IMG/VR virus record: IMGVR_UViG_3300036860_000514
Span: 1-64,000 of that record
Source: a virus
DNA: 64,000 nt
Direction: 5' to 3' (one strand)
The stretch's first letter is position 1. Each line of letters opens with the position of its first letter. The position numbers and the translations under genes were made by a program. The notes beneath the pieces were generated by a model. It searched no databases. It saw nothing but the letters and a program-made list of their open reading frames with translations, and had not been told where the DNA came from. This document shows, in pieces, positions 21,634-61,957 of the stretch.

Positions 21634-21843
21634 TCAGAGATCCGCGGTGTCCGCCGTGCGCAGGTACTCGTCGAGCGTCGCGCTCGAGAATCGATGTTTC
21701 CGCACCCCGAGGGTCGGGAGCGTCGGGATCGGAAAGCGTCCGTCCGCGAGGAGCTTCTCGCCCGTCCGTTTCGAGATCCGCAACCGCTGGCAGACTTCCG
21801 CCAGCGTGAGGACCTCAACCAGTGTCGTTCTGTGCGCCGTCAT
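21634..21843 (-). CDS. Excisionase-like HTH protein
   Basis: VLTLAEVC..L.IS..T...L...G.FP winged-HTH pattern. Confidence 0.75.
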   Translation of the reverse strand: MTAHRTTLVEVLTLAEVCQRLRISKRTGEKLLADGRFPIPTLPTLGVRKHRFSSATLDEYLRTADTADL

Positions 21844-22091
21844 GACGTGATGCGTGTTTCGGCAGAGGCTCGCCGTCGCCGCTTCGGTCGGGCGTTCTTC
21901 GTCTCGCGGTCGGCGAACTTTGCCAGAAAGAGTCGGATTTTGTGCAAGGTGCGGTCGTACGGTTTGCGGCGGCGATTGTTGAGCAGGCGTTGTAGGGTGG
22001 CCCCCCGAATGCCGATCCGCTTGCCGAGCTTTTCGTACGACAGGTTCTCGTCCAGCCGGATTCGATTCAGTTCGACGAGTTCTGGTAGCAC
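21840..22091 (-). CDS. Cro-like XRE HTH regulator
   Basis: R....LSYEKLG..IGI...TLQRLLN; GTG start with GAGGG RBS; first gene after the leftward promoter. Confidence 0.78.
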   Translation of the reverse strand: MLPELVELNRIRLDENLSYEKLGKRIGIRGATLQRLLNNRRRKPYDRTLHKIRLFLAKFADRETKNARPKRRRRASAETRITS

Positions 22092-22137
22092 CGGTATGCC
22101 CTCACTGCGTCTCCGTGTATGACAGACCGTTGAGCGC

Positions 22138-22166
22138 ATCGTAGAGAGGCAGTACTATCATGTCAA
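22138..22166 (-). promoter_or_regulatory. sigma70-type promoter of the leftward lytic operon
   Basis: Minus strand reads TTGACA-17 nt-TACGAT. Confidence 0.8.
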
Positions 22167-22178
22167 GCACAAAATGCA

Positions 22179-22658
22179 ATGGCAGTGCAGGCGGTAACAG
22201 TGGTAATGTATGGTCTCGTGGCGACAGAGTTCCAAACACTCCTCCGGAGCGCGTCCGCGCATTACGACACACAACAAGATCTCGCTGATGCTCTGGGGAT
22301 CAGCGTGGCGAGACTCAACCGTGCGCTGAATAAGGGCGACTATCCCCTGAGCGCGCAGAACTGTTTGCGCCTCGCCCTGGTCGCGGGTCAACCCGCGTCC
22401 GTAATTCTGCGCGCGGCCGGGAAAACCGATCTCGCCGATCTGATCGAGCGGCTCTATGGCCGATCCGATCTCACACCCATGCAGCGCGAGGTGTTGGAGG
22501 AGTGGGCCCTACTGCCCCCCGAGGTGCAGACAGTGGTGCTGCAACTAATGCGCGTGGGCAATGCAGCCCGGCGGCGAAGCGGAGGAGCGTCAAGACCGCA
22601 GCCTGCGCCTCACGTGGAGCCCACGCCAGCAGCACGGCGGCGTCGGCGCGCAGGCTAG
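22179..22658 (+). CDS. CI-like XRE HTH repressor (start may be 22209)
   Basis: TQQDLADALGISVARLNR HTH; divergent from the cro-like gene; no peptidase domain. Confidence 0.78.
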   Translation: MAVQAVTVVMYGLVATEFQTLLRSASAHYDTQQDLADALGISVARLNRALNKGDYPLSAQNCLRLALVAGQPASVILRAAGKTDLADLIERLYGRSDLTPMQREVLEEWALLPPEVQTVVLQLMRVGNAARRRSGGASRPQPAPHVEPTPAARRRRRAG

Positions 22659-22928
22659 CGTGCACACACGGATGGACCAGTAGGCGCGCTCCTGATGTGC
22701 GTCTGGGGGTACACGACGTCATTCGAGCCCTCCGAACAAAAAGACCGCTAGGGAGGGGGAGCTGGGATCCGGAAGTGTAATCGAGGAAACCTGGGTGGCA
22801 ATCGACCAAAGATCGGCGAGGATACGGGTCATTGACGAGACATGGACGGACTGAACTGTATAGAACGGATCGGAATCAGACGCGACCGACACAGATTTGT
22901 GTGCAAGACGTACGCGAGGGATCACACG

Positions 22929-23129
22929 ATGTCGTTGACACACCGCGGCAGACTCACCCTGCAACAGAACGCCGCGCACGCGCGGCAAGCAAAGAAAGAT
23001 AAAGCGGCCGCACGCTGGCAACAGCAGATGGCGTGGGCGAAGCGCGGAGCCGCCGAGCGCGTGGTCGAGATTCACTTTGAGCTCCAACGACTTGAGCAGT
23101 TCCTCACCGATGGGGATCGTGAATCGTGA
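22929..23129 (+). CDS. hypothetical protein upstream of integrase
   Basis: GAGGG RBS; stop overlaps the integrase GTG start. Confidence 0.5.
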   Translation: MSLTHRGRLTLQQNAAHARQAKKDKAAARWQQQMAWAKRGAAERVVEIHFELQRLEQFLTDGDRES

Positions 23130-24175
23130 AGGATCTGACGATAGGCGTCTACGATACGCCCACGCGTCGGCGGGCGATCGTCGATCTTGGGAGGGCTGGG
23201 CGGAAGGAGAAACGCTTTCCGCTCACGACCGATCTCCGCACGATCCAACGCTGGCGCCACGTCACGACGGTCAAGCTCGAGACGCGCGCGCGCCGCCGAT
23301 CGCCAGGACCGAGGGGCTGGCTCGCCACGCTCATCAATCAGTATCTGGCGCGGCCCGAGATCCGCAAGCTGGCGTCGTGGAAGTCGCGCTGTTCTGATGC
23401 CCGGGCGTGGCTGCCGGCGCTCGGATCGCTGCGTAGCGATCGGATCACCGACGAGGTGATCGAGGCCGAGGTCCAGGCGTGGCTCGCGGCGGGCGTGGCG
23501 CGCTGGACGATTCGCCATCGCTTGACGGCGCTGCGCAAGGTGCTCGACGATGGGACGGGGTACAACCCGGCCCGCGACGTGAAGCCGCCGGCGAAGCCAC
23601 AAACGATCCCGCGCGCGCTCGACTACGCGACGATCCGCACGACGTTCAATCAAATGGAGCCGTCTGCGACCAAAGGCTTTCTCTTGATCATGGCGTTCTG
23701 CGGCTTCCGCCCGTGTGAGATTCTCCGCACCGAGCGGCGGATGGTGCGCCTCGACAGCCACGCGCCCTATGCCATCCGGCCAACCGCCAAGGGCGGAGAC
23801 ATCGTCACCCTGCCGCTCTCGGCGGAGGGCGTGCTCGGCTGGCAGATGTTTCTCGATCACGACGGCTTCGGTCTGCAAGCCAACCAGAGACCCAGGACCT
23901 TCTGCAACGCGAATCGCGATTGGCAGGCGGCGATGACTCGTGCCGGCTTCGAGCCGACCCGCGCCTACGATCTCGTGCACTCCTACTGCACACAGCTCCT
24001 GTGGGGCGGCTACGACATCACGCTCGTGCAGAAGGCCCGCGGGCACCGCGACATCCGCACGACGATGATCTACACGAAGGTGGCGATCGACCCGCGCCTC
24101 GCGCATGCCGTGCACCAGGCGTTCGACGCTCGCACGCCTCCACTGGTACTCACTAGTACAGTACACAGGACGTGA
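23126..24175 (+). CDS. int: Tyrosine recombinase/integrase
   Basis: GFRPCEI, K(GG), YDLVHS in place of HxLRHS, GHRDIRTTMIY; adjacent to attP. Confidence 0.88.
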   Translation: MKDLTIGVYDTPTRRRAIVDLGRAGRKEKRFPLTTDLRTIQRWRHVTTVKLETRARRRSPGPRGWLATLINQYLARPEIRKLASWKSRCSDARAWLPALGSLRSDRITDEVIEAEVQAWLAAGVARWTIRHRLTALRKVLDDGTGYNPARDVKPPAKPQTIPRALDYATIRTTFNQMEPSATKGFLLIMAFCGFRPCEILRTERRMVRLDSHAPYAIRPTAKGGDIVTLPLSAEGVLGWQMFLDHDGFGLQANQRPRTFCNANRDWQAAMTRAGFEPTRAYDLVHSYCTQLLWGGYDITLVQKARGHRDIRTTMIYTKVAIDPRLAHAVHQAFDARTPPLVLTSTVHRT

Positions 24176-24178
24176 TCG

Positions 24179-24412
24179 ATGACCGTGGTGTGGAGCTATC
24201 GTGAACAGGGAGCGCCGATCATGATCCGACAGGAAATCGTCGATGGACTCTCGACACTCATCGCGCGGCTCGTCAACGAGTTGCCCGCACAGCCGCCATT
24301 TGAGGAGCACGAGTGGATGTATGTGAAAGGGATCGCCTCTGGGGAGCTCCTCCGGCTGCGTGATCGGCTCGCGCAGATCTCGGATCTGGGAACGGTCTCG
24401 AACCCGCGGTGA
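24179..24412 (+). CDS. hypothetical protein between int and attP
   Basis: AGGA RBS and ATG. Confidence 0.4.
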   Translation: MTVVWSYREQGAPIMIRQEIVDGLSTLIARLVNELPAQPPFEEHEWMYVKGIASGELLRLRDRLAQISDLGTVSNPR

Positions 24413-43852: not shown

Positions 43853-44234
43853 ATGCGCCTACTGCTGGTCCTGCTCTTCGTCCTCGGATCGGGGCCGACC
43901 GAACCCACATACGTCTACCAGGCGAAGACGCTGCGCGTGCTCGACGGGGATACCTACGAATTTCTGATTGATCTCGGGTTTCAGACCTCCACCACGCAAG
44001 AAATTCGCCTCTATCACTGGGATTGTCCCGAGCTCCCCACGCCCGAGGGCAAAGCCGCCGCGGCGAAGGCCGAGAGCCTCCTGAAGGATCAGACGGTTCT
44101 CGTCGAACTGATTCTCGGCCCGCGCAGTCATCAAACCCATCCGATCGTTCATTCGCTGGGTCGCGAAGGTCTGGATCGCTGGGAAGGATCTCGGCGAACT
44201 CCTCGCGCCGGCCTGTGCCTATGCCGCTCCATGA
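43853..44234 (+). pseudogene. Thermonuclease (SNase)-family protein with hydrophobic leader, interrupted by a +1 frameshift
   Basis: RVLDGDT..LIDLGF...IRL...DCPE. The expected C-terminus RSFIRWVAKVWIAGKDLGELL is in the +1 frame after about 44125-44140. Confidence 0.7.
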
Positions 44235-44739
44235 TTACGTACACTGCATGACCGTGGTGGTCGATCAGTACCGATCGGTCGAGGAAGGCGCGATCGCCAA
44301 CCCGCCGCGCTGCCCGGAGTGCGGGCAGCCGATGGATTTCATCTATGCCACGACGGCGATGGATGTGGGCGGGGTGAAGGGCGCCGGCTTCAAAGCCTTC
44401 GATACCTTCGACGGCCGGGGCCGTCCGGTCCGCATCGAGAACCTCCGCGCTCTGCGCAAGCTCGAGAAGGAGAGCGAACAGCAATACCGCGATGGTGCGG
44501 GCCAGCCCCTCACCTTCCGGATGTGGTCCCAGGGCGACTCGAATCGGGACGCGCGGGCCGATCACCGCGACTGGTCAGGTGGGGAACAGCCCACCCCCGC
44601 GGCCGCGCACACCTTTGGGGCCTCCCTGCAGCGATCGATCGAGGAACCCGATCAGGGCTTCGGACCTGGGGTGCACGAGGGCAACGCGAGCGCCCTCGGG
44701 ATGGGCGCGGACTTCACCACCGAGGACCTTGCTGAATGA
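44221..44739 (+). CDS. hypothetical protein with FmdB-like zinc-ribbon start
   Basis: MPLHDY...CPECG..M. Confidence 0.6.
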   Translation: MPLHDYVHCMTVVVDQYRSVEEGAIANPPRCPECGQPMDFIYATTAMDVGGVKGAGFKAFDTFDGRGRPVRIENLRALRKLEKESEQQYRDGAGQPLTFRMWSQGDSNRDARADHRDWSGGEQPTPAAAHTFGASLQRSIEEPDQGFGPGVHEGNASALGMGADFTTEDLAE

Positions 44740-47226: not shown

Positions 47227-47258
47227 CAGTACTGATGTGCAGTCCTGTCACCTCATCG

Positions 47259-47435
47259 ATGAAGACGCAGGCTGATCGCGACTATCAGGCAGAGAGTGAT
47301 CACCGCACGATGACGCAGGCGGCAGAGATCACCGCGGACCGGAAACGCCTGGCCGGCGTCCGCCGTCATCACGGCAAGGAACAGAAGAAACTCGCCCTGG
47401 TCCAGCGATCGGTTCTGCAGGCCGGGAGACGCTGA
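47259..47435 (+). CDS. small basic protein
   Basis: TGATG-coupled to the next gene; ends AGRR. Confidence 0.6.
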   Translation: MKTQADRDYQAESDHRTMTQAAEITADRKRLAGVRRHHGKEQKKLALVQRSVLQAGRR

Positions 47436-47683
47436 TGGCCAATGGGAAGGACGCAAGATCCGACGAGAAGCCGGTCGGCCAATACGATCCGAACCGTGCT
47501 CGTCGTGTGATGGCGACCGCCACTCCCGAGTACTTCGCCGGACGCATCCGGCGCAAGCTCTCCGACGCCGGCGAGAGTGCGATGGCGGCCGGTCGGAGTT
47601 TCCGCCGGAGTTTCAGCTCGGATAACCCCGGCGTGCAGAGCATCGCCCGCACGCTGCTCGGCAGTGGAGGCCGTCGACGCTGA
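47435..47683 (+). CDS. small basic protein
   Basis: TGATG-coupled; ends GGRRR. Confidence 0.55.
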   Translation: MANGKDARSDEKPVGQYDPNRARRVMATATPEYFAGRIRRKLSDAGESAMAAGRSFRRSFSSDNPGVQSIARTLLGSGGRRR

Positions 47684-47868
47684 TGGCCGAGAAGAAATGG
47701 ATCGCCGGCGCCATCAAACACCCGGGGGCCCTGCATAAACAACTCGGGGTCCCCGAGGGAAAGACGATCCCCGCGAAGACGCTCTCGAAGGCGGCGCAGT
47801 CGGGCGGTACGCTCGGGCGCCGCGCGCGCCTCGCCCAGACGCTCAAAGGCTTTCATCGAGGACGCTGA
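47683..47868 (+). CDS. small basic phage protein
   Basis: KWI..AIK.PGAL...LG...RARLA.TL pattern, which I recall from other phages. Confidence 0.7.
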   Translation: MAEKKWIAGAIKHPGALHKQLGVPEGKTIPAKTLSKAAQSGGTLGRRARLAQTLKGFHRGR

Positions 47869-48056
47869 TGGCTGCCAGTCCTGGCAAGGTCGGCACCGTG
47901 ATGCACGAGTTCAAGCACGGCACCCTCCGATCGGGGTCTGATCGGGGCCCGCGCGTGACCTCGCGCAAACAAGCCATCGCGATCGGGTTGAGTGAAGCGC
48001 GGAAGGCGGGCGAGAAGGTGCCGAGCAAGCCGCGATCGCTGGGAGGACGACGCTAG
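47868..48056 (+). CDS. DUF6496-like small basic protein
   Basis: KV..VMHEFK.G.L.SG...VTSRKQAIAIGLSEAR..G. Confidence 0.75.
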   Translation: MAASPGKVGTVMHEFKHGTLRSGSDRGPRVTSRKQAIAIGLSEARKAGEKVPSKPRSLGGRR

Positions 48057-48328
48057 TGGCCAATATCACGAGCGCGAAGACGGGGGCGGAGGGGGGCGAG
48101 TCGCTGCGTGCGGCGATCCCGAAGGCTGCCAGGGCCCTCACCAAGGCGGCTAATCAGGATGAGATCGTTCGACGCGTCCGTGACAAGACGATGCGGAGCC
48201 TGCAGCCGGGCGACATTGAACTGGAGAGTGGGGAGACCGTGACGCGTCCGATGACGCACGTGCGCGGGCTCTCGGTCCGTCGGCAGCTCGCCGGCCGGCG
48301 CTCTCACGGCAGGGGCGGGAGCTGGTGA
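48056..48328 (+). CDS. small basic protein
   Basis: GTG start; shares MRSLQ.GDIEL with the next gene. Confidence 0.55.
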   Translation: MANITSAKTGAEGGESLRAAIPKAARALTKAANQDEIVRRVRDKTMRSLQPGDIELESGETVTRPMTHVRGLSVRRQLAGRRSHGRGGSW

Positions 48329-48547
48329 ATGGAGCATCTTTCCGACCTCTGGGATCGAATCCAGGCTCAGCGTCGCGATCGGCAGATGCGTAGTCTGCAG
48401 AAAGGCGACATCGAGCTCCCGAACAAGGGCCCGATCGATCCACGCCTGCGCACGCCTGAGAAGCCCGATGTCTCCAAGGCCCTCTCGCGAGCGGTCGAAG
48501 GCGTCGGGATCCTGCGGAAGAAAGGCCTACTCGGAGGCAAGCGATGA
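48329..48547 (+). CDS. small basic protein
   Basis: MRSLQKGDIEL; ends GGKR. Confidence 0.55.
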   Translation: MEHLSDLWDRIQAQRRDRQMRSLQKGDIELPNKGPIDPRLRTPEKPDVSKALSRAVEGVGILRKKGLLGGKR

Positions 48548-49022: not shown

Positions 49023-49865
49023 ATGCCACTCAGTAAATCTGCACAAGCTGGCCTGACCTTTCTGCAGGGCTGGGCGCCGACGCTGCCGGAAGCCTTCCGA
49101 GCCGAGGTGAGCGCACTGCTGACCAAGATCACGAGCACGCCGGAGGCTGAGATCGAACCCTCGCTGCGCTATGTCGGCGACGGGGCGATGGCCCGCCCGG
49201 ACTACTCGCGCGCCATGAACGACCTCGCGGAGAAAACCAAGGAGCTCGATGCCATCGCGCAAGAGCACACCCAGTGGTACGCGGAGAACAAAGACGCCCT
49301 CACGGAGTACGTCCGGATCAAGCCGGAGTACGACAAGTTGAAGGGCAACGGGCATCCCAACCCGAATCCCAACCCCAACCCCACCCCGAATCTGGATGCG
49401 AAGGGCCTGACCTCTGATCAGCTCGCCGAGGAGCTCGAGCGGCGAGACCGGAGCTACGCCAGCGTCTTGGCCTTCGGGGTCAGCCTCGCTCAGCGCCACT
49501 TCGCGATGTTCAACGAAGCGCTCGACATGGGCGAGCTGGTCGCCGATCCGCGGATCGGACAAGCGGTGAAGGGACAACCGGGACGGGTCTTCGGGCTCCA
49601 GGATGCCTACAACGCGAAGTACGGGGAGCGGGTCCAGCAGAAAGCGCAGGAGGCTGAGACCGCTCGCATCAATAAACTCGTCGAGGAACGGCTCGTGGAG
49701 GAACGGAAGAAGCAGCCGCTCCAGCAGCCCTATCCGCTCGCCCGATCCGAACCCTCGGCACTCGACGCACTCGCGACCAAAGACGGCCCTGCCGCGCACA
49801 CGATCGACACCGCCGTCGCGGAGTACGAACGGCTCCAGCAGGCTCGTCTCAGCGCGTCGCCGTAG
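49023..49865 (+). CDS. Putative capsid scaffolding protein
   Basis: Coiled-coil, DYSR motif, (PN)n linker; immediately upstream of the capsid gene; strong RBS. Confidence 0.7.
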   Translation: MPLSKSAQAGLTFLQGWAPTLPEAFRAEVSALLTKITSTPEAEIEPSLRYVGDGAMARPDYSRAMNDLAEKTKELDAIAQEHTQWYAENKDALTEYVRIKPEYDKLKGNGHPNPNPNPNPTPNLDAKGLTSDQLAEELERRDRSYASVLAFGVSLAQRHFAMFNEALDMGELVADPRIGQAVKGQPGRVFGLQDAYNAKYGERVQQKAQEAETARINKLVEERLVEERKKQPLQQPYPLARSEPSALDALATKDGPAAHTIDTAVAEYERLQQARLSASP

Positions 49866-49882
49866 TGCGGGGAGGAGTCCCC

Positions 49883-51049
49883 GTGATCCGTCGTCTGCGG
49901 GATCTGCTCGCCTGGGCACGATCCCATCCGCGCCTCGTCGCACTCAGCGTCTGGGCGCTCGCCACCTATCTCCATCCGGATGCGGCGTACCTCGGGATCA
50001 TCCTGGCGATCCAACTCGACGACGTCAACACGACGACGACGAAAGAGATCGTACCCGGGGTGGTCGACAACTACTTCAAAGCGGGTCCCTTCATCGCCAT
50101 GGCGAAGGCTCGCTTCACGCGCAAGTGGATCGGGCCCCAGATTCAAGAGAACTACATGTACAAGCCGATGAAAGGCGGCGCGTACAAGAAGGGGGCCAGC
50201 TTCAACACCGACCGCCGGCAGACCCGCACGGGCCTGCTCTTCACGCCTCGCTACTATCAGTGCAACGTCACCGAGTTCCTCGAGGACATCGAAGTCGAGA
50301 TGGCCGGCCCGCGCGCCGCCTTCTCGGTGATTCGCACCGACATGCAACAGGCCGCGCTGACGATCTCCGCGATTCTCGAGATCGCCGCCTTCCATCACGG
50401 GCAGAATCTCGCCGGTGATGATCGCTCGGCGGAGATCCAGGGAGTCGAGGAAGCGCTCAACGACGGCAGCAACGCGAGCATCTTCGGCAACGTCTTCCCC
50501 TCCTACGGAGGCCAGACGCGCGCCGATGTCTCGCCGGCGCTGAATCCGCCGACGGGACTCGTCGCGGCGAGCGTCTCGCAAATGAGCTATCGCGCGCTGC
50601 GCCATAGCTACTTCTCGACCATCATCGGCAACGAACGCCCGACGGTGGGGATTACCACCAACCGCAACATGGGCTTCATCGCCGAAAACTTCCTGCCCCA
50701 TCAGATCGTGGATACGACCCAGCCCGAGATCAACTGGCCGGGCATGAAATTCGATCAAGCCACGATCGTGATGTCGCAGTACGCCCCAGGGCAGGACGGC
50801 GTCAACGACCCGGATCTGGGGAACTACAACGCCACGACTGAGAGCTTCTACTGGCTCAACTTCGGGCCGCAGGGGGACGACGCCTACATCCGCCTCTACA
50901 TCGCGCAGAGTTCGAAGTTCGCGTTTGGCTTCACGGGCTTCAAGGGCGCACGTGGGGACAACCAGGTCTCCGGCCAGATCCTCTTCGCCGGCAATCTGAC
51001 CTTCCGCGCCGTGCGGCTGTCCCGCGCGATGTTCGGCTTCACGAGCTAG
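49883..51049 (+). CDS. Major capsid protein with hydrophobic N-terminal leader
   Basis: Position after the scaffold; VVDNYF..P, G..I, I.G..AL.DG, Y.G..R and C-terminal QILFAGNL fit HK97-fold capsid proteins; GGAGGAG RBS before GTG at 49883. Confidence 0.82.
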   Translation: MIRRLRDLLAWARSHPRLVALSVWALATYLHPDAAYLGIILAIQLDDVNTTTTKEIVPGVVDNYFKAGPFIAMAKARFTRKWIGPQIQENYMYKPMKGGAYKKGASFNTDRRQTRTGLLFTPRYYQCNVTEFLEDIEVEMAGPRAAFSVIRTDMQQAALTISAILEIAAFHHGQNLAGDDRSAEIQGVEEALNDGSNASIFGNVFPSYGGQTRADVSPALNPPTGLVAASVSQMSYRALRHSYFSTIIGNERPTVGITTNRNMGFIAENFLPHQIVDTTQPEINWPGMKFDQATIVMSQYAPGQDGVNDPDLGNYNATTESFYWLNFGPQGDDAYIRLYIAQSSKFAFGFTGFKGARGDNQVSGQILFAGNLTFRAVRLSRAMFGFTS

Positions 51050-53511: not shown

Positions 53512-54048
53512 ATGCCGGCATGGCGCGCGATCGTGTCCGCCTGGATGGCTCGCCTCCGCCGCGCCCTCCACGTCCTGCGGAAGGTCCCGATCGTGCCGGG
53601 GAATAGCTTCGTCGTCGCGACGATCTCGACGGCGCACTTCACGGGCGCGCTGGCTCAGAATGCGGCTGAGGGGATCGATCTCGACCTGCCGATGTCGATT
53701 GCGGCCGGGCTGCACAGCCGGTCCTTGGTCCGCCAAGTCATCGTGAAGAGCGTCCAGAATCTCGACTGGGAGATCTACCTCTTCGACCGGGGCACCAAAC
53801 ACACCGAGCTCGACCCGGATCGCAATGGCTTTCTCGGCCATTGGCGGCTCACGGCGAGCCAGGGCTTGCGGATCGGGGCGACGGGGCTGTTTTATTATTA
53901 CGTCGATGGCCTCGCCGTGCCCTACGAAGATCGGGATCAGCAGGGACGGCTCCATCTCGTGCTGATCAACCGGAGTGCGACCGCGAAGGACGCGGGGGCT
54001 CCCGGTGCCCTCACGATCCAGTTTCGATTGGAGCCGACCTATGGGTAA
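53512..54048 (+). CDS. structural-region protein with basic amphipathic leader
   Basis: MPAWRAIVSAWMARLRRALHVLRK followed by a beta-rich domain. Confidence 0.55.
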   Translation: MPAWRAIVSAWMARLRRALHVLRKVPIVPGNSFVVATISTAHFTGALAQNAAEGIDLDLPMSIAAGLHSRSLVRQVIVKSVQNLDWEIYLFDRGTKHTELDPDRNGFLGHWRLTASQGLRIGATGLFYYYVDGLAVPYEDRDQQGRLHLVLINRSATAKDAGAPGALTIQFRLEPTYG

Positions 54049-56101
54049 GCGACCGCTGGTCTTTCTCGGCTTGCTACTTAGCAACCTTTACTTGCTAGTT
54101 GACAACTCCCTCGCGCAACAGCCGGTGCGGGTCTTACTCACGACGCCGCAGGGCGCGGACGCCGGGACGAGTACCGATCCGGTCACGATCACCTGCATCT
54201 CTGGCTGTGGATCGCCGCCCGCGACCCCCGATAACAGTGTGTTTACGGGAGGCACGACGAGTGTCTCCCCCTTCGCCGCCTTGTTCGACACGACGCCCCC
54301 AACGATCACGGATGGGAACTACGGCATCCCGCGCATGGATAGTAGTCGCTATCTGTTCACCGTCTTTCCCAGCGCTCAGCACATCATCTGCGATTCAGGG
54401 TGTGGAGCAAGCTCATTTCCGGATAATAGTGCATTTACATTCGGAACTACCAGTGTCACGGTTGGGGCGGGTGTATTAGATGATGTATCGCCTAATGCTG
54501 CTACAGAGAATAGTGCGGCCGCATTCAGGATATCGTCTAATCGAATGCAATTATTTCAGCTAGCCGATGGTGATGGAAACGAGAGACGTGCATTCGTCAA
54601 CTCTGATAATCAGCTAGAAGTCAGAGTAGGTAACGTCGCCTCTGATAGCGTCAAAATAGATGTGGTCCGATGGGGTGGAGCTACTCCATCGGGGGCTATT
54701 GCTGGCCCTCAAACTGATGCACAACCCAACACTCATGCCTTACCTCCTATGGCTGGATTTGGATTCCTCTTCAATGGGACCAGTTGGGATAGATGGCGTA
54801 GTGTGGTCAATGGGGCTAATTCAGTTGGAACTGGAATAGCTGCTGCTGGATTAGTTGGTCAATTTGATGATACGACTCCCACATCAATCACCGAGAATCA
54901 ATTCGGTAATTTGCGAATAAGTGCGAACAGGAATCTGTTTGGCACCATTCGAGATGCTGCGGGGAATGAACGCGGAGCGAACGTCACGGCGGCTAACGCT
55001 CTTGTCGTCGATGGATCTGCGACCACGCAACCGGTTTCTGGGACCGTCACGGCGAATCAAGGGACTCCCACGAATTGGGCAATGAACGTGGCTCAGTGGG
55101 GGGCGTCAAACGTCGCAGCGGCTGCCGTTCCTATCGATGATATGTCGAACTCTTTCGCGCTTCCAAAGGTGGTTGCCTACAATGCTGTATTTGATGGGTC
55201 TACCTGGGATCGTCTTCTAGAGGCCGCGCACGCGTTAAATTCGACTGGGACGGGGATCCCCACGGCACAGATCGTAGGGCAGTTTGATAACGTATCCCCA
55301 ACCACAATTACCGAAGATCAATTCGGTAATCTGCGAATGTCGGCGAATCGTAACTTGTTTACGACGCTGCGTGATGCGGCCGGCAACGAGCGTGGGGTCA
55401 ACGTCACGGCCGCCAACGCCCTCGTCACGGATGGATCCGCCGTCACACAGCCCGTGAGCGGGACGGTCACCGCGAATCAAGGCACGGCGAATGCGACACC
55501 CTGGAACATGAACCTGGCTCAGGTGGCGGGGACCACTACAGTTACCGCCGCCGCAGGTGTCCAGAGGGTCGGGATCGTCGGCAACGCCAATGCGGCCTTT
55601 GACGCCGCGAACAATGCGGCGGCGCCGGCGAATGTTCTGGTTCCTGGCGTCGAGGTCATCGCGCAGGGATCCCAACCGACCGCTGCGAGCGCCGGGAACG
55701 TGCGACGAGTGCTGGCCACGACTGAGGGTGTGCAGTTTGTACAGGAAGGCTCGTCGAACCGCTTTTCGTGTTTTGTCCAGGCTGTCACAGCCACGACGCA
55801 ATGTCAGGCCGCACCAGGTGCAGGTCTACGAGCCTATGTGACCAGTGTGATGATGTCGAACCAGGCTGCGACGGTGCAAACTCTCGACATCGTCTTTGGA
55901 ACTGGAACGAATTGCGCGACGGGTACCACAGCCCTAACGCATAAGGTCCAGATGGGGACCAATGCCACGACGACCAGCCCGTTTTTCGTGCCGATGCAGT
56001 TTCAAACACCGCTGATCCCGACGGCCGCAAACGCCATCTGTGTTCGGCCGTCCGCTGCAACGGCGTTCGGGGCGACCATTACTGGATTCATCGCTCCCTA
56101 A
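54041..56101 (+). CDS. Fiber-like repeat protein with signal-peptide-like N-terminus
   Basis: MGKRPLVFLGLLLSNLYLLVDNSLA|QQ; two close copies of a long repeat plus a diverged one; Thr/Asn/Ala-rich; partly lower GC. Confidence 0.65.
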   Translation: MGKRPLVFLGLLLSNLYLLVDNSLAQQPVRVLLTTPQGADAGTSTDPVTITCISGCGSPPATPDNSVFTGGTTSVSPFAALFDTTPPTITDGNYGIPRMDSSRYLFTVFPSAQHIICDSGCGASSFPDNSAFTFGTTSVTVGAGVLDDVSPNAATENSAAAFRISSNRMQLFQLADGDGNERRAFVNSDNQLEVRVGNVASDSVKIDVVRWGGATPSGAIAGPQTDAQPNTHALPPMAGFGFLFNGTSWDRWRSVVNGANSVGTGIAAAGLVGQFDDTTPTSITENQFGNLRISANRNLFGTIRDAAGNERGANVTAANALVVDGSATTQPVSGTVTANQGTPTNWAMNVAQWGASNVAAAAVPIDDMSNSFALPKVVAYNAVFDGSTWDRLLEAAHALNSTGTGIPTAQIVGQFDNVSPTTITEDQFGNLRMSANRNLFTTLRDAAGNERGVNVTAANALVTDGSAVTQPVSGTVTANQGTANATPWNMNLAQVAGTTTVTAAAGVQRVGIVGNANAAFDAANNAAAPANVLVPGVEVIAQGSQPTAASAGNVRRVLATTEGVQFVQEGSSNRFSCFVQAVTATTQCQAAPGAGLRAYVTSVMMSNQAATVQTLDIVFGTGTNCATGTTALTHKVQMGTNATTTSPFFVPMQFQTPLIPTAANAICVRPSAATAFGATITGFIAP

Positions 56102-60602: not shown

Positions 60603-61328
60603 ATGGCCTACCAAGCGGTCACGCTCGAGGATCTGCGGAAGGCGATCGCCGCCAAACGGGATGGCATTCTGCAGTGGACGCCCGAGGAGGAACGGCTCGC
60701 GATCAATGAAGCCCTGCGCCTCTGGAACCTGCTGACGGGGCGCTGGCGTCGTCGCGCATCCCAGAACACCGGAGTCGGTACGGTGGAGTACACGCTGCCC
60801 TCGACGATGGTCTATGGGATGCGCGTCGTCGTCAGCGGCACCCCGCTCGCGGTCGCCTCGACGACCGAGCTCGATCTCATGCGCCCGAGCTGGCGCAGCG
60901 AGACCGTCGCCTCGGGGGGTGACGTGCCGACGGCGCCAACGGTCTGGGTCCCGATCTCGCTGCTGCGGATCGCGATCTGGCCGGCGATGAACAGCGTGGT
61001 CGTGAACGGGCTGCAGGTCGACGGCGTCTCGGCGACGCCGATCCTCTCCGAGCCAGGCGACTTCGTCGATCTCGGGCAGGAGCTCTTCGACCATCTCCTC
61101 AACCTGGTGCTGCACCTGCTGGCCTTCAAGATCGGTGGCCAGACGTGGAAGGCGACGCTCCCGGCCTTTCAGCGCTTTCTCCAGGCCGCCGCCGAGGAGA
61201 ACGGCGTCCTCAAGGCGAATCAGAAATTCCGGCGCTGGGCCGGGCTGAATCGACGCGTCGATCTGCAGAAGGCCAAGGGCGAGTCGACCCAGCTCGATCT
61301 GATCGCGGGAGGCGGAGGCGTCCAGTGA
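60603..61328 (+). CDS. Head-tail adaptor-like protein
   Basis: WT.EE...AINEA, YTLP, IWP. Confidence 0.6.
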   Translation: MAYQAVTLEDLRKAIAAKRDGILQWTPEEERLAINEALRLWNLLTGRWRRRASQNTGVGTVEYTLPSTMVYGMRVVVSGTPLAVASTTELDLMRPSWRSETVASGGDVPTAPTVWVPISLLRIAIWPAMNSVVVNGLQVDGVSATPILSEPGDFVDLGQELFDHLLNLVLHLLAFKIGGQTWKATLPAFQRFLQAAAEENGVLKANQKFRRWAGLNRRVDLQKAKGESTQLDLIAGGGGVQ

Positions 61329-61957
61329 CCGATCAAGAGCTCCTCACCGCGATCCAGTACGCGCTCGTCGAGCCCCCGGATGGCGGCTCGAGCTGGCCCT
61401 CGGGGCTCTGGACGCGCGATGAAGTGATCCAGGCGCTGAACACGCGCCAGCGGCAGCTCCTGCGCGACACGCATCTGATCGTCACCCGCACAGAGACCCC
61501 GGTGACGGCGAACACCAACCCCGTCACGCTCCCTGCGGATTGGATCGCGACGCTCGGCGGCGTGTGGCGGACCGCCGGCGGCGTGCGGACTCCGCTCTCC
61601 CCCGCCGACGCCTTCGAAGCGGATCTCGCGCTGCCGTCCTGGGAAGTCACGCCAGATATTCCGCTCGCGATCCTCGACGGGGATGAGGGCACGCTCACCC
61701 TCCGCCTCTCGCCGATCCCGGTCGCCGATGGCACGCTCGAACTCCTCTACGTCGCCCTGCCGACGGCGGCGACGGGCCACGGCGTTACCTTGTCGATGCC
61801 CGATGAATTTCTGGACGGCGTGAAATACGGGACGCTCGCGGATCTCCTCGGCGGGAAGGTGGGCCGAGCGAGTGATCCCGCGCGCGCGCAGTACTGCGAA
61901 GAGCGCTTCGGGCTGGTCGAGATGGCGGCGGAACTGATCCTCGGGGGCTGGGCCTAG
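61325..61957 (+). CDS. Head-tail adaptor-like protein (DUF6682-like)
   Basis: WT..E....LN..Q, LPAD, L.P.P, LYV..P. Confidence 0.6.
   Translation: MTDQELLTAIQYALVEPPDGGSSWPSGLWTRDEVIQALNTRQRQLLRDTHLIVTRTETPVTANTNPVTLPADWIATLGGVWRTAGGVRTPLSPADAFEADLALPSWEVTPDIPLAILDGDEGTLTLRLSPIPVADGTLELLYVALPTAATGHGVTLSMPDEFLDGVKYGTLADLLGGKVGRASDPARAQYCEERFGLVEMAAELILGGWA

Follow-up and report, generated by a model that had tools for sequence, protein, structure and literature searches.

An optional hydrophobic leader on the predicted major capsid protein of a podophage-like virus

Why would the major capsid protein of a tailed phage begin with a hydrophobic, membrane-type segment? The accepted view is that capsids of the HK97 fold are built in the cytoplasm from soluble subunits, aided by scaffolds or delta domains. 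The question is raised by IMG/VR virus record IMGVR_UViG_3300036860_000514, a single record of an uncultured tailed phage, 72,037 bp long and rated 100% complete, of which the first 64 kb are here called the window. An earlier note on this DNA had proposed that its capsid protein is made with a basic and then hydrophobic leader of about 41 residues, that this leader tethers capsid assembly to the membrane and may be removed by a host peptidase, and that capsids could thereby be placed next to membrane-linked glycosylation machinery. Here, we examine whether this leader belongs to the capsid protein, how it is distributed among related phages and what it might do.

The start of the capsid precursor

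The GTG codon at 49883, five bases downstream of the Shine-Dalgarno (SD) sequence GGAGGAG at 49871-49877, opens an open reading frame (ORF) of 388 codons that ends at 51049 and is in frame with the capsid coding sequence, as the earlier note had read it. Residues 1-47 of the precursor are MIRRLRDLLAWARSHPRLVALSVWALATYLHPDAAYLGIILAIQLDD. A codon scan found no in-frame ATG, GTG or TTG from 49883 to GTG 50060 (residue 60), which is within the conserved N-arm, in agreement with the earlier remark that the mature N-terminus has no ATG or GTG in front of it. The closest homologue, P0001, starts at the position matching GTG 49883. An alternative GTG at 49865, six codons upstream, has no SD of its own. 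Since this codon shares bases with the stop of the preceding gene and comes before the SD, translation probably begins at 49883. The features on which the argument turns are the following.

49871..49877, + strand: Shine-Dalgarno GGAGGAG, which serves the leader start (GGAG or better at most 18 nt before the start codon in 15/15 leader-bearing loci)
49883..49885, + strand: GTG start codon of the capsid precursor (P0001 starts at the same position)
49883..50005, + strand: 41-codon hydrophobic leader, residues 1-41 (structure model, alignment of 44 leaders, leader HMM)
50003..50008, + strand: leader/mature junction, Leu41 CTG / Ala42 GCG (ATG or GTG at codon -1 in leaderless relatives)
50006..51049, + strand: predicted mature HK97-fold major capsid protein, residues 42-388 plus stop (structure model, Foldseek, VIA-align)
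49023..49865, + strand: putative scaffolding protein of 280 aa, stop 17 nt before the capsid start, a label that we infer

Because residues 42-59 are conserved across all homologues, translation must start upstream of them. Among 59 related IMG/VR loci, 14 have an in-frame extension before the conserved part, 44 have none and one is cut at a contig end. In the leaderless loci, codon -1 is ATG or GTG in 43/43 that were read, mostly after an SD-like GGAG or AGGAGG run. The long and short forms have a common layout of scaffold stop, short SD-containing spacer and start codon, and the long form has 35-51 additional codons directly after that start codon; where the scaffold tail was recognized, short forms have a gap of 18-60 nt between its stop and Ala+1, and long forms one of 132-193 nt. 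It could be argued that ribosomes initiate at CTG 50003 or elsewhere inside the frame and that the leader lies outside the capsid protein: CTG is an occasional initiation codon, and leaderless relatives begin exactly at the position of CTG 50003. We hold this to be most improbable. There is no SD motif within the 20-33 nt upstream of CTG 50003, and none near the junction in any of the 14 long-form junctions (13 leader-bearing loci plus the window). At these junctions, codon -1 is GGG or GGC (Gly) in 9/14 and CTG or CTC (Leu) in 5/14, with CTC in a single case. Moreover, the strong SD stands before the leader start in every one of the 15 leader-bearing sequences, and the leader frame stays open despite indels that leave leaders of 36-52 codons. 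The start at the downstream CTG that the earlier note had named as a possible objection is thus not borne out, and we conclude with high confidence from these comparisons that the leader is translated as part of the capsid protein.

A profile hidden Markov model (HMM) of the leader matched only the capsid ORF in six leader-bearing genomes (E 1e-13 to 1e-8) and found no free-standing copy in five leaderless genomes (best E 0.74). That leaderless phages encode the leader as a separate gene was considered and ruled out, given this result and the gap of 18-60 nt. At the level of RNA, an element in the leader DNA was not supported (fold z-score -0.78; 47/200 shuffles fold equally well), and the leader DNA had no match in Rfam at E up to 1. 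As a separate observation, the minimum-free-energy fold contains a 7-bp hairpin at 49867-49884, directly after the scaffold stop (49863-49865), in which the SD region is paired with the GTG start; the fold of the whole region is no better than that of shuffles. This modeled hairpin could couple translation of the capsid gene to that of the scaffold gene.

Neither Pfam nor PHROGs gave a match for the capsid ORF, nor did they give a useful family match for the terminase, portal and scaffold candidates, and we relied on structure. The AlphaFold2 (AF2) model of the precursor, built on 82 sequences, has a pLDDT of 89.7 and a pTM of 0.79. Its top Foldseek matches are all HK97-fold phage capsids or encapsulins, with at least 349 matches at E <= 0.001. 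In VIA-align, model residues 43-388 align with the capsid protein of cyanophage A-1(L) (7f38_I; Z 22.4, rmsd 4.0, 310 residues), and the model also aligns with HK97 1ohg_A (Z 17.9) and SU10 7z45_C (Z 16.6). The only GenBank phage matches are the 'major head protein' of two Tunturiibacter (Acidobacteriota) phages (24.9% identity, E 3e-14), which are podophages (PMC11924767); they are the only relatives in culture. Of four matches in metagenome-assembled genomes, two are assigned to Gemmatimonadota and one each to Patescibacteria and Binatia; all but one of the four lie on short contigs. Downstream of the capsid gene, the SU10_adaptor Pfam family is matched by two overlapping ORFs, 60603-61328 (E 2.9e-7) and 61145-61957 (E 6.2e-16), which may be tandem paralogues; the true start of the second is probably further downstream. 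The order and sizes of the genes fit a head module, and the neighbours are conserved in ten related genomes. Based on the AF2 model, Foldseek, VIA-align, the Tunturiibacter podophage matches and the SU10_adaptor ORFs, we are confident that residues 42-388 are predicted correctly as the HK97-fold major capsid protein of a podophage-like virus. The separate scaffold gene described in the earlier note is there in the sense that a conserved gene, 49023-49865, lies upstream of both long and short capsid forms. The encoded protein is charged and helical by composition, and its C-terminal motif is conserved in 58/59 related loci; its label as a putative scaffold comes from position and composition. 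One leader-bearing homologue, P0028, is named 'subtilisin family serine protease' in its source. Because its precomputed Pfam field is empty and the window capsid has no Pfam match, this name is probably an annotation error.

Pattern, hydrophobicity and distribution of the leader

In the AF2 model, the leader forms helices at residues 2-14, 16-30 and 32-42 (block pLDDT 94, 89, 90 and 77), followed by a linker of lower confidence. It is predicted to consist of a basic amphipathic helix and two short hydrophobic helices joined by a His-Pro-Asp turn, with the conserved His-Pro pairs at residues 15-16 and 31-32. An alignment of 44 leaders of at least 35 residues has a shared pattern: a basic amphipathic start, W-x-R-x-H-P, a hydrophobic stretch and a second H-P that is often followed by D or E, after which 8-12 hydrophobic residues end in Gly (35 leaders) or Leu (9). 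Both His-Pro motifs could be located in 42 leaders, and in 24 of these they enclose 14 residues.

Hydrophobicity was scored as the maximum Kyte-Doolittle (KD) mean over 19 residues, with the classical threshold of 1.6. The window leader reaches 1.35; among the 44 related leaders, the maximum is at least 1.6 in 30, with a median of 1.85. For the mature regions of these proteins, the median is 1.07 and no value exceeds 1.38, and in a background of 4,363 stop-free 47-aa six-frame windows of the genome, 3.9% reach 1.35, 1.8% reach 1.6 and 0.6% reach 1.85. The hydrophobicity of the leader is beyond chance. Thus, the reading frame, the hydrophobicity and the alignment all bear out the earlier description of a leader of about 41 residues that is basic and then hydrophobic.

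The homologue search found 462 proteins. Among the best 120, from which the N-terminally truncated P0093 was left out and to which the window was added (120 rows, 119 listed proteins plus the window), 49 rows have the long form with a homologous hydrophobic leader and 71 are short, with Met or Val as the start exactly at the junction. The alignment that the earlier note had called for therefore reveals a leader pattern that is conserved where the leader is present, being common to the 44 aligned leaders, and a majority of close relatives that do without it. On the maximum-likelihood capsid tree, long and short forms interleave, with 12 changes, of which at least three are forced by well-supported branches. 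When the tree was rooted with six leaderless outgroups, which have long branches, and nine near-duplicate or truncated rows were dropped, the ingroup split into two clades, one of 15 in which all are long and one of 96 in which both forms occur. The simplest reading, for which we infer the polarity, is that the leader was gained once and then lost repeatedly, or that a cassette was exchanged by recombination via the conserved flanks. By these comparisons, the leader is an optional in-frame cassette placed directly after the start codon.

More distant relatives nearly all start at the junction. Of 105 judgeable representatives of 50% clusters, nine have an extension of at least 18 residues, and eight of these nine are hydrophobic (KD15 at least 1.87); four have the W..HP..HP pattern and three, of 24-29 residues, are unlike the window leader. 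In a distant capsid lineage, L104:2896-3303 (54% GC, 46% identical to P0214), AGGAG and ATG precede a hydrophobic extension of 35 codons that is also unlike the window leader. Hydrophobic leaders therefore seem, from this survey, to have arisen more than once in the capsid superfamily. A search of the protein database for short free-standing leader homologues gave one candidate and none that scored, and an ESM Atlas search with residues 1-46 gave no usable match.

The leader evolves much faster than the protein to which it is attached. Over 946 pairs, the leaders are on average 28% identical and the mature parts 77%; the two closest pairs of equal length have dN/dS values of 0.29-0.31 for the leader and 0.07-0.08 for the first 100 mature codons. 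In more distant pairs, leader pN is at least as high as adjacent mature pS, values that are saturated and for which the ungapped alignment is unreliable. No site in the mature domain co-varies with the leader such that it separates the two classes; the best column differs by 0.56 in frequency. These data could be taken to mean that the leader is close to neutral, an in-frame N-terminal insertion after the start codon that is tolerated because it does little harm, in line with its absence from 71/120 relatives, its very fast evolution and the lack of compensating changes in the mature part. We consider this improbable because hydrophobicity is far above background in 30/44 copies, the W, HP, HP and G positions are conserved with the helix length fixed, dN/dS is about 0.3 in the closest pairs, and hydrophobic extensions recur in unrelated versions. 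A profile in which the pattern is kept and the sequence varies, as seen in these alignments, is usual for membrane or signal segments.

Possible roles of the leader and gene content around it

The signal peptidase I of the Sec pathway favours small residues at -3 and -1, no Pro at +1 and a length of about 18-30 residues. The window leader has Ile at -3, Leu at -1 and a length of 41 residues. Over the 44 leaders, the junction is G/A in 19, L/A in 9, G/P in 5 and another G/x in 11, and there is no uniform cleavage motif. The capsid protein might nonetheless be sent across the membrane by a Sec, Tat or lipoprotein export signal, given its basic N-terminus, the hydrophobic core next to it, the acidic early mature region and the 28/44 junctions that nominally satisfy the -3/-1 rule. 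In our view this is hardly credible. In addition to Leu at -1 in the window, Pro occupies +1 in 5/44; the leaders, at 36-52 residues, carry a polar turn mid-way; the residue at +1 is A, P, V, I, D, S, E or L and never the Cys of a lipobox; and the Arg-Arg at residues 3-4 of the window, reminiscent of a Tat signal, is not conserved in the alignment. Moreover, an HK97-fold protein, if exported, would be unable to package cytoplasmic DNA. Removal by a host signal peptidase, one way to read the host peptidase of the earlier note, does not suit the window junction.

Rhomboid proteases prefer a small P1, a large hydrophobic P4, a hydrophobic P2' and a P1' other than Pro (PMC2941825). This motif, which has low specificity in a hydrophobic context, occurs at 27/44 junctions and not at that of the window (Gly at P4, Leu at P1). 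A six-frame search of the 100%-complete genome gave no match to Rhomboid, Peptidase_S78 or CLP_protease, families that were recovered in 14/14, 4/14 and 13/14 control genomes, respectively. Pfam on 56 ORFs recognized DNA polymerase A fused to UDG, methyltransferases, a GT4 glycosyltransferase, an integrase, an AAA ATPase, cpYpsA and GNAT, and no peptidase, lysin, holin or endolysin family. The earlier impression that there is no prohead protease thus holds at the level of protease families, beyond which unrecognizable proteases are possible. The ORF at about 44218-44739, between the terminase and portal candidates, is conserved in 10/10 relatives at about 165 aa and has CxxC...CxxC zinc-ribbon-like motifs in most of them; it was considered as a hidden protease and rejected, looking like a small zinc-ribbon-like protein.

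To place the leader relative to known capsid proteins, we used VIA-align. Model residue 42 lies opposite HK97 residue 104, at the end of the delta domain, and the first ordered residues of T5 (165), D3 (114), HTV-1 (101) and Mycofy1 (251) align to model residues 39-41; the separate-scaffold capsids of A-1(L), SU10 and Mic1 begin at their own residues 2-6. Because of this correspondence of junctions, the leader stands in the place of cleaved delta or scaffold domains. HK97 delta domains face the procapsid interior.

Our working hypothesis, to which we give somewhat less than even chances, is that the leader is a transient, cytoplasm-facing hairpin that partitions into the membrane. Its two hydrophobic helices would enter the cytoplasmic face of the inner membrane as a hairpin with both ends in the cytoplasm, and would hold or concentrate new capsid protein until it joins scaffold and portal. 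Because the leader sits at the interior-facing delta-domain position, it would later have to leave the membrane or be clipped, that is, be pulled out or cut near the junction by a protease that is not phage-encoded. The membrane step would be accessory rather than essential. We rank this hypothesis first because of the TM-level (transmembrane-level) hydrophobicity of the leaders, their composition-constrained evolution and the recurrence of unrelated hydrophobic extensions, three features that one expects of a membrane-interacting segment rather than of a known delta domain.

Several observations weigh against a membrane hairpin. The KD maximum of the window leader is below the classical threshold. 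The hydrophobic stretches are short (about 14 and 8-12 residues) and have between them a conserved turn that is polar and in many leaders charged (HP[DE] or RP[DE]); because of these two properties, a classical bilayer-spanning helix or double pass is doubtful. Most of the close relatives compared (71/120) lack the leader, and their mature domains show no change that would compensate for it. The junctions share no uniform cleavage motif, that of the window does not fit a rhomboid protease, and a phage protease was not found in the family-level searches. Finally, about 400 interior-facing leaders per shell would need extraction or clipping. Of the membrane tether that the earlier note proposed, the conserved basic and then hydrophobic character stands, whereas its function as an anchor is called into question by the short stretches, the polar turn and the value of 1.35 in the window. 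A complex prediction with four copies of residues 1-46, run without controls, gave a score of 0.01 and speaks neither for nor against association of leaders.

Possible, and in our estimate nearly as likely as the hairpin, is that the leader acts as a miniature delta-domain-like assembly helper with no membrane involved. The leader would then point into the procapsid and cluster with neighbouring leaders or pack on shell or scaffold, stabilizing capsomers, and would later be degraded or kept inside; its basic first helix may touch DNA. The position of the leader, exactly where delta or scaffold domains are cleaved (opposite HK97 104 and, for T5, D3, HTV-1 and Mycofy1, at 39-41), fits this, as do the three confidently modeled helices and the nearly fixed length of helix 2 (14 residues in 24/42), which points to a defined fold. 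Ordinary TM helices would have to be longer than the hydrophobic stretches are, and no extraction from a membrane would be needed. On the other hand, a separate scaffold-position gene accompanies both capsid forms, the mature domain has no positions that co-vary with the leader, the searches above revealed no protease, and the unrelated leaders of distant lineages are also TM-like in hydrophobicity. Known delta domains, by comparison, are described as coiled-coil and without defined TM helices (PMC9671378).

A further role would begin after cleavage: the released leader could be a small membrane-active peptide, for instance a holin-like lysis timer linked to the making of capsid protein, or one that leaves the virion together with the DNA. 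For the N-terminus of gp9 of Gordonia phage EpicDab, it was proposed that it is cleaved and may act like a holin (PMC9671378), and no holin or endolysin family was recognized among the 56 ORFs by Pfam. We give this reading little credence. Cleavage of the leader is itself hypothetical; leaderless relatives have no membrane-protein gene that replaces it, the family restricted to four of five leaderless genomes looking soluble; neither the HMM search of leaderless genomes nor the protein database yielded a free-standing copy or short homologue.

Whichever of these readings applies, hundreds of closely related capsid genes that differ mainly by an optional membrane-type leader at the delta-domain position constitute a natural experiment. 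If the leader binds the membrane, it would reveal a membrane-linked step in tailed-phage capsid assembly; if not, it would be a new, minimal kind of assembly pro-region. A bolder extension of the membrane hypothesis, which we regard as unlikely, is that several unrelated tailed-phage capsid families are made as membrane-anchored precursors in which the hairpin nucleates the shell at the inner membrane, that a host intramembrane or membrane-proximal protease (rhomboid-type at Gly/Ala) releases the mature protein, and that long and short cassettes are exchangeable, adapting phages to hosts.

We also compared gene content by tblastn between the window genome plus five leader-bearing genomes and five leaderless genomes. 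No ORF was present in at least 5/6 leader-bearing and 0/5 leaderless genomes, and the ORFs limited to 4/5 leaderless genomes were soluble-looking or shadow frames. Genes of the glycosyltransferase (GT) cluster were found in 6/6 leader-bearing and 2/5 leaderless genomes (one-sided Fisher p ~0.06, with genomes that are not independent), and the single scanned enzyme of the cluster that matches a glycosyltransferase family has no membrane feature. The connection between leader and glycosylation raised in the earlier note is accordingly weak by this comparison.

Other features of the gene content are recorded here in their own right. A tyrosine integrase at 23126-24172 (Phage_integrase, E 2.3e-11) and its small neighbours, together 21840-24412, have no counterpart in ten relatives, and the segment looks like a strain-specific insertion. 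The late-operon protein at 54041-56101 (686 aa) has internal repeats, no homologue at E < 1e-5 in ten related genomes and a signal-peptide-like N-terminus (basic, hydrophobic, with a small-x-small site); it is probably a variable fibre or receptor-binding protein. Between the portal and scaffold candidates, small basic ORFs at 47235-48547 have Gly-Gly-(Arg/Lys)-Arg-like tails. Such tails recall the C-terminal cargo-loading peptides of encapsulins, and encapsulins are among the top structural matches of the window capsid protein.

Comparison with known capsid systems

The leader resembles the delta domains of the HK97 type (T5, D3) in that it is a helical N-terminal extension directly before the N-arm and is more variable than the shell domain. 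It differs from them in length (41 rather than about 100-160 residues), in being hydrophobic rather than coiled-coil and charged, in the presence of a separate scaffold-position gene with no prohead protease found, and in being optional among close relatives. Delta-like extensions were reported in ~35% of actinophage capsid models (10.1101/2022.09.09.507160).

A phage capsid with a membrane-held precursor is offered by M13, and it is the model for a coat that is held in the membrane and released by a peptidase, as the earlier note envisaged. The hydrophobic leader of M13 procoat holds the coat protein in the inner membrane until a host peptidase releases it, and the coat assembles in or through the membrane. 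In contrast, an HK97-fold shell must close in the cytoplasm, and the window junction, with Leu at -1, is unfit for signal peptidase I. The capsid leader of Staphylococcus phage 80alpha is shorter than that of the window and not hydrophobic. In 80alpha, the N-termini of capsid and scaffold proteins are trimmed by the host protease Prp, and phage with pre-cleaved or uncleavable capsid protein is viable (PMC5744158). The window phage is similar to it in having a short N-terminal piece on the capsid protein, a separate putative scaffold and no recognized protease of its own; the piece is dispensable in 80alpha, and natural leaderless forms imply as much for the leader of the window. The 80alpha piece, however, mimics the extension of ribosomal protein L27, and the window leader has no such motif.

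The nearest case is gp9 of EpicDab, a capsid-protease fusion with an N-terminal domain of 116 aa that has two predicted full TM helices and a coiled coil, the peptidase being in the same polypeptide; its authors considered that this N-terminus may be delta-like or may be released (PMC9671378). Both proteins are tailed-phage capsids with a membrane-type N-terminus, in both cases by prediction. The window leader, at 41 aa with short hydrophobic helices and no protease, differs from it, and the two phage lineages are unrelated. In Providencia TatA, a rhomboid substrate, an N-terminal extension is removed in or beside a hydrophobic helix (PMC2941825). The window junction, with Leu at P1 and Gly at P4, differs from this case as well; no phage rhomboid was found, and a hydrophobic stretch that ends in Gly, as in many relatives, fits the motif easily. 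In the main texts of the literature searched, there was no description of a membrane-type leader on the capsid family of the window, EpicDab being the only near case. Capsid pro-regions as such are thus already known, and what sets the present one apart, on the evidence of the sequences compared here, is that it is hydrophobic, optional and without a protease partner.

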